In this document: piece by piece, positions 4,875-16,106 of the stretch
Layout of the letters: the number at the start of each line of letters is the position of its first letter
How positions within the stretch are numbered: position 1 is the stretch's first letter
Origin: a virus
Taxonomy: Duplodnaviria > Heunggongvirae > Uroviricota > Caudoviricetes
IMG/VR virus record: IMGVR_UViG_2648501299_000001
Coordinates: 1 to 16,106 of that record
Reading direction: 5' to 3' (one strand)
DNA: 16,106 nucleotides
Translations under genes and position numbers: made by a program
Notes under the pieces: model-generated
Told to the model about the DNA's origin: nothing
What the model saw: only the letters and a program-made list of their open reading frames with translations
The model's database searches: none

Positions 4875-5792
4875 TCAGCCTACTGTTCTAAAGATGAGAA
4901 GTGGTGTCATCCCATACGAATCACTTCCTCTACCAGCTTGTACCTTGACCATATCCAGGAAGGATTGTAATCCTGACTTGAGATCGTGTTCAGGGAAATC
5001 AAGAGGGTTATTGATATTCTGATCTTGTACAGAATCTGGCAAGGCATCAATCAATCCAATGACATGCCAGGTACCCGGTATGGTGCCACCATATTTTAAG
5101 GCTAAGTCATCAGGATTAATTGTTAAATATTCTTTATCAATAGACATCCACATCAGGTTGCCATTCTCATCAATAAAATCAACCTGGAGGATGTTGGGAA
5201 CGATATTAATGAGTTTCTTAACTACACCAATGGTAAGCCCAGGAGATATCTCAATTTCATCTGGGGTGAGTTTCCCTTTAAGCTTCGCTTTGGCTTTTGG
5301 GGGAAGGTTGACCGTGTTTAATTGTGCTTGGGCTATCTCACCAAAAATAGGCATAATTTTCTGAATAGTTGACACATCAAAAATGCGCATTTTTCCAACA
5401 GAATGAACAACTGAACCAAGATTCTCACCATTAAGTCCAGTTTTAATCATTCCTGCTTCATCTAATTTATCGAGAAAATTAATTGGTAATGACCATGAAG
5501 CGTCGAAAGTTTTCTCTTGCGAATGTGTTAAGGCGTCGTCAGTCCCCACTTTTCCTTTAAGAATCTTGACGCTTAATTCAACGGATTTATTAGATTTATC
5601 TGTGTCAGAAGTAGTTTGTTTTACGCTCGTCACTACACCAGCATTGTGAAGCTGGGCTGTGAGGGAGCTAACGCGTACACGGTCTATGTAAAGAAAATCA
5701 AATAGTGAATCTGTGCTTTGTTGTTCGAGCTCCATTTTGCCAATCCTCTCTAAATTTTTCTTTTTCCTCGCGAATTCTTTTTTGCTTTTCAT
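4875..5792 (-). CDS. Hypothetical protein in AT-rich insert downstream of cI (rexA/rexB-equivalent position); 305 aa, or 286 aa from ATG 5735
   Basis: Long ORF with visibly lower GC than the flanking phage genes. The ATG at 5735 has a GAGAGG RBS about 9 nt upstream; the ATG at 5792 has a weaker context. Same strand as cI and followed by the terminator at 4814-4850. No motif recognised. Confidence 0.6.
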   Translation of the reverse strand: MKSKKEFARKKKNLERIGKMELEQQSTDSLFDFLYIDRVRVSSLTAQLHNAGVVTSVKQTTSDTDKSNKSVELSVKILKGKVGTDDALTHSQEKTFDASWSLPINFLDKLDEAGMIKTGLNGENLGSVVHSVGKMRIFDVSTIQKIMPIFGEIAQAQLNTVNLPPKAKAKLKGKLTPDEIEISPGLTIGVVKKLINIVPNILQVDFIDENGNLMWMSIDKEYLTINPDDLALKYGGTIPGTWHVIGLIDALPDSVQDQNINNPLDFPEHDLKSGLQSFLDMVKVQAGRGSDSYGMTPLLIFRTVG

Positions 5793-15298: not shown

Positions 15299-15651
15299 CC
15301 ATTACAAAGCCCATCTACTGGTGGGCTTGATAATGAAACCGGAATTTATTCTGGGCAACCAGTTACGGCAGTACAGCGAAACAACCCAAGCCAGTAAGTG
15401 GGGAAATAACACTGGCAGCCACTGAAAGATGAACCTCCTGCCTTATGGCAAAAAAGATTCTTTGTGGTGGCGGACTGATGGAAAGACATCGGTTATTGCA
15501 GAGGCCATTCAATGAGTGGTCTCGACAATGGCTTATACCATGCACGGGATAACTTAACTGATATCCCTTTTAACGGATAAACGGAGCCAATAATGGCAGA
15601 GAATGTCGGCATTATGGCAGTGAAATTTGGATAAATCGGAGATTAGTACAT

Positions 15652-16002
15652 ATGCCGCCACGAATCCCAAAAGCCTGCCGTGTTCGCGGTTGCCGCCATA
15701 CCACCACAGCTCCTTCCGGCTATTGCGAAAGCCACAAAAACGAAGGCTGGAAGCAATACAAGCCAGGACAATCCCGTCATCAGCGCGGCTACGGTTCGAA
15801 ATGGGATGCTATCCGTGAACGTGTGCTGCAACGTGACAAAGGCCTGTGTCAGTTATGTCTGCGTGCTGGTGTGGCGCGTGAAGCGAAAACCGTTGACCAC
15901 ATCATCCCTAAAGCACATGGCGGCACTGATGCCGACAGTAATCTGCAGAGTCTGTGCTGGCCGTGTCATAAGGCGAAGACGGCCCGTGAACGGCTAAAGT
16001 GA
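15652..16002 (+). CDS. HNH endonuclease (terminase-associated type)
   Basis: Cys/His pattern CRVRGC...C...H...CQLC...VDHIIPKAHGG.D...NLQSLCWPCHKAK, typical of the HNH nucleases found next to small-terminase genes and cos sites in HK97-like packaging modules. Confidence 0.85.
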   Translation: MPPRIPKACRVRGCRHTTTAPSGYCESHKNEGWKQYKPGQSRHQRGYGSKWDAIRERVLQRDKGLCQLCLRAGVAREAKTVDHIIPKAHGGTDADSNLQSLCWPCHKAKTARERLK

Positions 16003-16043
16003 TAATAATTCTCAACTGCCTAGTGATAATAATTCTCAACTGC
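15998..16043. repeat. Two perfect 22 bp direct repeats (AGTGATAATAATTCTCAACTGC) at the HNH 3' end
   Basis: Copies at 15998-16019 and 16022-16043, 2 bp apart. The first contains the HNH stop codon. Confidence 0.9.
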
Positions 16044-16052
16044 ATGGGGGGA

Positions 16053-16101
16053 GGGGCGGGTCAAATCTCTACAGCCCTGACTGTTCGGGACTGCCCGCCC
16101 C
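16053..16101. other. G/C-rich inverted repeat (GGGGCGGG ... CCCGCCCC); candidate cos/packaging recognition element
   Basis: GGGGCGGG at 16053-16060 and CCCGCCCC at 16094-16101, 33 bp apart, directly downstream of the HNH gene and direct repeats, where the cos site and terminase genes are expected. Confidence 0.35.
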
Positions 16102-16106
16102 ATCGT

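Follow-up and report, generated by a model that had tools for sequence, protein, structure and literature searches.

The 16,106-nt stretch of DNA analysed here (hereafter the window) closes with a cluster of direct and inverted repeats placed immediately behind a gene for an HNH endonuclease. An earlier note on this DNA had proposed these repeats as candidates for terminase or HNH recognition elements, or for the cos cleavage region of an HK97-like phage. The question raised by the locus is therefore whether a packaging site lies here, and if so, which of its elements belong to the site proper.

The window is lambdoid prophage DNA of E. coli, mosaic in make-up. The products assigned by Pfam along it are Ead/Ea22, a YqaJ-type exonuclease, RecT, a DUF6414 protein, an S24/HTH CI-like repressor, YdaT, O, P, a Q antiterminator, a holin, Rz, KilA-N and HNH. 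In a search of the whole window against complete E. coli genomes, the best match covered 81% of it at 97.7% identity, and all matches were mosaic. The DUF6414 protein (305 aa; 4875-5792, minus strand) is encoded with the recombination genes (RecT, YqaJ) on one side and the CI-like repressor on the other; the best-matching prophages also list TIR-domain, SIR2, HipA-kinase, DUF3037 and SNIPE-associated proteins under the match, at positions that are approximate, and this region may be a variable cargo or defence slot. Near the other end, the ~350 bp upstream of the HNH gene (15299-15651) are without a convincing ORF, and a short direct repeat (ATAATGGCAGAGAA / ATTATGGCAGTGAA) is found at 15590-15624, just ahead of the HNH start.

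The HNH protein shows 40% identity to HK97 gp74 over 65 aa (E 2e-10), and its gene is 91-94% identical in nucleotide sequence to the SfV, SfI and SfIV counterparts. It is present in 1,147 of 5,426 complete E. coli genomes, one of which, E. coli E89 (locus L001), carries the identical architecture of two direct repeat copies and inverted repeat behind the same gene. The E89 sequence continues with a run of seven T, terS (Pfam Terminase_4, P27 family), terL, portal, an HK97-family protease and the major capsid protein. terS and terL lie directly 3' of cos in E89, SfV and SfI, while the window itself stops at +5 from the predicted cut. The HNH gene is thus the last gene before cos and the terminase genes in the homologous prophages and phages, as the earlier note had supposed, and its product is an accessory nuclease of the packaging machine. 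In HK97, gp74 is essential in vivo; it binds to TerL and stimulates cleavage at cos, according to a review (PMC13595911, citing Kala et al. 2014).

The TerL proteins across the loci fall into one cluster, and that of the E89 homologue is 26% identical to HK97 gp2 over 522 aa (E 2e-29). However, TerS of the SfV type shows no similarity to HK97 gp1 (BLASTP E 6.4): the former is a Terminase_4 protein, and the latter matches no Pfam family. The site thus resembles HK97 in its DNA, TerL and HNH, and departs from it in the TerS family. In two of the loci collected (L120:1-3500 and L133:100-2900), two cos regions are present ~2.8 kb apart; in L120, cos-terS is followed by an IS3-family element with HTH_Tnp_1 and rve ORFs, and then by HNH and another cos-terS. 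Such arrangements point to neighbouring or rearranged prophages whose packaging sites are duplicated.

The position of the genome ends can be read from related phages. For SfI, both termini of the virion DNA were sequenced and compared with the prophage, leaving a 10-nt gap, 5'-TGCCCGCCCC-3', reported as cos (PMC3636060). The SfI record ends exactly at ...GGACTGCCCGCCCC and restarts with GTCGTTTTTTTATACCCGCG, followed by terS. The same decamer is found in the window, where it corresponds to the right arm of the inverted repeat (16094-16101) with the two preceding bases; it follows a tetranucleotide that reads GGAC, GTAC or TGAC in aligned relatives. Since both run-off reads of SfI leave a gap, and such gaps are what 3' overhangs produce, the SfI ends point to 3' overhangs. 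HK97 overhangs are likewise 10 nt and 3' (PMC11331095; PMC9410871, Figure 1 legend). The Discussion of PMC9410871 gives 10-nt 5' overhangs for lambda and 12-nt 3' overhangs for HK97, in conflict with its own legend, and the lengths there appear swapped.

The parallel with HK97 extends to the cos sequence. Each element of the HK97 physical right end, ...TGAGAATGAATCGCATCAGGGCAGGGGGGGGGATCAAATCTTCAAAACCTTTGCCCCAAATGACCGCCGCCAAA, has its counterpart in the window: both have an AT-rich palindrome, a G-run followed by (A/T)CAAATC (ATCAAATCT after the G-run in HK97), a spacer of ~20 nt, GAC(C/T)GCC and the overhang, in the same order and spacing, with GACCGCCGCCAAA at the HK97 end. The terminal CGCCGCCAAA of HK97 falls position for position on the decamer of the window, from which it differs in sequence. 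HK97 further differs in that its HNH gene is separated from cos by ~320 bp, which hold an additional small ORF and further palindromes. From the mapped SfI decamer and the HK97 alignment, I infer a top-strand nick at 16101/16102 and a bottom-strand nick at 16091/16092; by this analogy, 3' polarity and these exact nick positions are predicted for the prophage of the window. With the top-strand nick so placed, the window ends inside the site, 5 nt past the cut, which agrees with the earlier suspicion that the structure is truncated at 16106.

The last 109 bp of the window are therefore very probably the upstream (packaged-last) half of a cos site of HK97/SfV type, with the overhang at 16092-16101. 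This assignment rests on identity to a mapped end sequence, on gene order in homologues and on conservation patterns, with the mapping of ends coming from SfI. It also supports in part the proposal that the repeats form the cos cleavage region: the right arm of the inverted repeat does coincide with the cohesive end, but the repeats as such do not define the site. The features are listed in Table 1.

Table 1. Elements of the predicted cos half-site and the adjoining gene (window coordinates; the cut is the predicted top-strand nick)
Feature	Position	Strand	Remarks
HNH endonuclease gene, 116 aa	15652..16002	+	ORF; Pfam PF01844 HNH, E 5e-16
Direct repeat copy 1, AGTGATAATAATTCTCAACTGC	15998..16019		Extra distal copy, with HNH stop codon; -104 to -83 from cut
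Palindrome 1, TGATAATAATTCTCA, 15 bp	16000..16014		Fur 7-1-7 core 13/14; 6/7 dyad pairs
Direct repeat copy 2, AGTGATAATAATTCTCAACTGC	16022..16043		Orthologous position; -80 to -59 from cut
Palindrome 2, TGATAATAATTCTCA	16024..16038		Offset -29 from G-block anchor; -78 to -64 from cut
Conserved G-rich block, GGGGGGAGGGGCGGGTCAAATCTCT	16046..16070	+	-56 to -32 from cut; holds left arm 16053-16060
Variable spacer, G-block to cut region	16071..16087		Several alleles among close relatives
Conserved GGAC directly 5' of cohesive end	16088..16091	+	Alignment of relatives
Cohesive end, TGCCCGCCCC, 10 nt (predicted 3' overhang)	16092..16101	+	Identical to SfI mapped decamer
ATCGT, first 5 nt (+1 to +5) of packaged-first end	16102..16106	+	Continuation from E89, SfV, SfI

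The published records of this phage group disagree on the end position. Those of SfV (NC_003444) and SfIV (NC_022749) are linearised at the equivalent of 16084/16085, inside the spacer and 17 nt upstream of the SfI-mapped end. Because the SfI authors term the SfV cos mechanism "postulated" (PMC3636060), whereas the SfI ends were sequenced, I gave the SfV boundary less weight, and the SfV and SfIV record ends are probably not physical genome ends. These records bear on one alternative, in which a nuclease would recognise the inverted repeat by its two-fold symmetry, comparable to the partial symmetry of cosN in lambda, and cut symmetrically between the arms. A boundary within the spacer, as in SfV and SfIV, would fit such a site; however, besides the postulated status of that boundary, the sequenced SfI ends fall in the right arm, away from the symmetry centre at 16077, the HK97 physical end also aligns with the right arm, and HK97 and other relatives do not retain the symmetry. 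I consider a symmetric site extremely unlikely.

Compared with the cos of the Shigella flexneri phages SfI, SfV, SfII and SfIV, the window has the identical cohesive end, G-block and GGAC motif, and its homologous prophages show the same order HNH-cos-terS(P27)-terL. It differs from SfV, which has one copy of the repeat unit, in the 24-bp tandem duplication behind the HNH gene, from SfI in the repeat unit itself, which SfI replaces by a different sequence of the same length, and from the SfI/SfV group in its 17-nt spacer, which is a different allele.

The second perfect repeat of the locus is the inverted repeat. The earlier note had described a G/C-rich inverted repeat behind the direct repeats, and this is present, with perfect 8-nt arms, GGGGCGGG (16053-16060) and CCCGCCCC (16094-16101), separated by 33 nt. 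It is marginal against chance: such a repeat arises in 5.1% of mononucleotide shuffles of 15998-16106, and in 2.7% of shuffles of the GC-rich part (16044-16106). The block holding the left arm is conserved in its own right, with the consensus GGGG.GGG(T/A)(C/A)AAATC(C/T)CT across 120 loci and references (81 distinct sequences), and is found in HK97, Enterobacterales, Halomonadaceae, Endozoicomonas, Haemophilus and Oceanisphaera. Relatives differ in the overhang (TGCCCGCCTC, TGCCGCTTCA, CGCCGCCTAA, ACCGCAGCCT and others), and no compensating change is seen on the left side. Among 47 distinct left/right pairs, covariation of the arms was absent, the best 8-mer complementarity averaging 6.11/8 within pairs and likewise 6.11 when arms from different pairs were combined (permutation p = 0.56); the anchor regular expression misplaced the window and L068 in this test, which left the result unaffected. 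Two other candidates for the G-block were discarded by eye: a canonical three-tetrad G-quadruplex, as there are only three G-runs of at least three, and an IHF site, as the match to WATCAANNNNTTR is poor.

The inverted repeat could also be read as an RNA hairpin or intrinsic terminator ending the HNH/late transcript, or as a DNA cruciform, given its perfect 8-bp G/C stems and the seven-T run that starts 4 nt past the right arm in full-length homologues. Nevertheless, the loop would be 33 nt, the predicted RNA fold, with an MFE of -25.4 kcal/mol, is no different from the average for shuffled sequences (z = 0.02), a terminator scan gave no call at the inverted repeat, and Rfam gave no match at E up to 1. 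With the lack of covariation, and with a right arm that is the mapped cohesive end, a hairpin or cruciform is very unlikely. The absence of covariation, the fold no better than shuffled sequence and the negative terminator and Rfam results together indicate that the perfect inverted repeat is a by-product of a G-rich recognition block standing near a C-rich cohesive end.

I next consider the direct repeats. The region reads ...CGGCTAAAG TGA TAATAATTCTCAACTGCCT AGTGATAATAATTCTCAACTGC ATGGGGGGAGGGGCGGGTCAAATCTCTACAGCCCTGACTGTTCGGGACTGCCCGCCCCATCGT, and the TGA stop codon of the HNH ORF, at 16000-16002, falls within the first copy. A repeat finder confirmed the two perfect 22-bp copies overlapping the HNH stop that had been described (15998-16019 and 16022-16043); they have a period of 24, and hence correspond to a 24-bp tandem duplication, far beyond chance. 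In the SfV clade, the 22-mer is present once in 61 loci and twice in a single one (that of E. coli E89), with a different sequence of the same length, GTAAGAACCAGTTCCCACTG, in 18 others, and neither in eight. The two-copy junction was found in five complete E. coli strains (W444, E89, CUPF06, XDL and 600055), and match lengths suggest that BY63 and BY68 are also two-copy. The allele is thus carried by about 5-7 of the 1,147 E. coli genomes in which this HNH gene occurs; an exact search found no such junction in IMG/VR contigs. Its recurrence in several independent complete genomes excludes an assembly artefact. The window and E89 share a C-to-A difference after the second copy, and their downstream spacers differ, which points to a single duplication, with recombination thereafter.

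The alternative allele GTAAGAACCAGTTCCCACTG occupies the equivalent of 16022-16043 in SfI (L139), which is viable and whose ends are mapped; it follows that the 22-mer is not required for cos function. This allele, shared by SfI and the 18 viral-contig loci, has its own small dyad, GAAC-CA-GTTC, and changes the HNH stop from TGA to TAA.

What each 22-bp copy does contain is one AT-rich palindrome, TGATAATAATTCTCA. An equivalent element, scored by its match to the Fur 7-1-7 core (at least 10/14), is found at -24 to -31 from the G-block anchor in HK97, SfV, loci of Citrobacter, Providencia, Serratia, Acerihabitans and Leclercia, and further genomes, most of them Enterobacterales. It is present in 35 of 61 distinct upstream segments, as compared with 1.4 expected from shuffling. 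It is missing in Halomonadaceae, Endozoicomonas, Haemophilus, Xenorhabdus and some Klebsiella loci. Its absence from SfI and from several lineages argues that the palindrome is an accessory, dispensable element. Additional palindromes were also noted: L020 (~2430-2500) has three AT-rich ones upstream of the G-block, with starts 22 nt apart, further ones occur in L016, L018, L022 and HK97, in the last ~130 nt of HK97 (L138) a perfect TGAAATCATTTCA precedes the proximal element by 30 nt, and a AAATGCAAT motif recurs in the cos regions of several lineages.

Could the direct repeats be TerS or HNH recognition repeats, comparable to the R sites of lambda cosB and needed for assembly of the cleavage complex? 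The fixed offset of the palindrome from the G-block in very diverged relatives and the palindrome arrays of some of them, such as the three copies in L020, would fit such a role. On the other hand, more than 99% of close relatives carry the unit once, SfI with its mapped cos ends and 18 other SfV-clade loci differ in sequence there, and relatives in Halomonadaceae, Endozoicomonas, Haemophilus and Xenorhabdus are without the palindrome. The TerS site of HK97 moreover lies across the cut, as 15 bp at +15 to +29 that comprise a C:G pair and an A/T tract. Since the repeats are upstream of the cut and that site downstream, terminase sites in the manner of lambda cosB are unlikely here. Recognition repeats, as put forward in the earlier note, are thus improbable, and the direct repeat is most likely a neutral duplication of a dispensable accessory palindrome. 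Nonetheless, as some relatives have two or three phased palindrome copies, the second copy may have a function.

The continuation read from E89, SfV and SfI shows that the T-run and the ATACCCGCGAAAAATGAAA block, the presumed TerS site, come after the window end. A block at ~+5 to +35, TTTTTATACCCGCGAAAAATGAAA, is conserved out to Halomonadaceae, and its variants accompany TerS members of the same cluster. This downstream block, outside the window, is likely the TerS site, an assignment made from block conservation and from analogy with HK97, to whose gp1 the SfV-type TerS is unrelated; ATACCCGCGAAAAATG bears no more than a loose similarity to CTAACCCGATTTTTT, the TerS site mapped in HK97.

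The layout can be compared with the cosQ-cosN-cosB arrangement of lambda, which is likewise built of three parts: a termination-side element upstream, the nicking site and, downstream of it and beside terS, a site for the small terminase. In lambda, the overhang is 12 nt and 5' (GGGCGGCGACCT), no HNH protein is needed, the R-site repeats and an IHF site are downstream of the cut, and the host DNA-binding protein IHF assists cos cleavage. In the window, by contrast, the repeats are upstream of the cut and the overhang is 10 nt, with a predicted 3' polarity. The lambda sequence GGGCGGCGACCT is absent from 15998-16106 and from the continuation in homologues.

The resemblance of the palindrome to a Fur box leads to a further possibility. 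TGATAATAATTCTCA matches the 7-1-7 core TGATAATnATTATCA at 13/14 positions, the 19-bp consensus GATAATGATAATCATTATC at 14/19 and the published 9-1-9 Fur box AATGATAATNATTATCATT at 14/18 (PMC3528687), and the two palindromes tie as the best Fur-consensus matches in the whole 16-kb window. Relatives reach 14/14 (Citrobacter braakii and a Providencia strain) and 17/18 (9-1-9), the consensus of the palindrome family, AA.TGATAATaATTcTCAtC, equals the Fur consensus, and the central position varies (A, T or G) within the SfV clade, as expected for a 7-1-7 site. The same consensus is kept across lineages that differ in their downstream TerS-site sequences, a constancy that fits a host factor. The palindromes might accordingly be bound by a host protein that has an accessory part, architectural or regulatory, at HK97-type cos, akin to that of IHF at lambda cos; Fur, the iron-sensing repressor of the host, is the most plausible and, by sequence, the obvious candidate. 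Two binding sites 24 bp apart would in that case have arisen through the duplication.

Several points speak against this proposal. A literature search found no paper linking Fur to cos, terminase or HNH; the palindromes are not in the promoter of an iron-regulated gene, as a classical Fur box would be, and a location between a stop codon and cos in a late operon is an atypical operator context. The element is also dispensable in SfI, and AT-rich palindromes could equally serve Fis, H-NS or simple DNA bending. I therefore regard a host-protein site as a tentative and rather doubtful reading. The same small likelihood applies to the broader suggestion that Enterobacterales HK97-type cos sites carry a putative site of Fur specificity, or for a like dimer, ~65-75 bp upstream of the cut.

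Returning to the cos half-site, the following model of cleavage can be proposed. On concatemeric DNA, TerL, together with the HNH protein encoded just upstream, would make two nicks 10 nt apart, the bottom strand being cut at 16091/16092 and the top strand at 16101/16102, to leave TGCCCGCCCC as a 3' overhang. TerS would probably position the nucleases from the conserved block at ~+12 to +30, beyond the window end. The G-rich block would be a separate upstream element, most likely read by TerL and HNH, or alternatively a termination-side signal like lambda cosQ, and its complementarity to the C-rich overhang would be incidental. The 24-bp tandem duplication would be recent, and have copied a segment that holds the HNH stop codon and the 15-bp AT-rich palindrome. 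The second palindrome copy is probably neutral, and the palindrome itself would be an accessory element found in many enterobacterial HK97-type cos regions, and a dispensable one. The roles given here to the G-block and the palindrome are those suggested by comparison of sequences.

The cos type and the exact cohesive-end sequence are already published. Modestly new are the upstream architecture common to HK97 and the SfV group despite their unrelated TerS proteins, the Fur-box-like palindrome at a fixed position, and the natural alleles with no, one and two copies of it, which provide ready-made test material. The HK97 substrates used in vitro (-312 to +472; -80 to +150) took in the upstream half of cos; a dissection of that half was not found in the literature examined.

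For this prophage family, the analysis places the genome ends at TGCCCGCCCC, the practical value of which is for annotation, and lays out a conserved HK97-type cos architecture consisting of an AT-rich palindrome, a G-block, the cut and a downstream A/T-rich block. If the suggestion of a Fur-like site were true, it would adjust cos cleavage or the expression of terminase to the physiological state of the host, as with IHF and lambda, and the lineage of the window would have doubled it at a 24-bp spacing. Should the palindrome bind a host factor, HK97-type phages would gain a counterpart to IHF at lambda cos.
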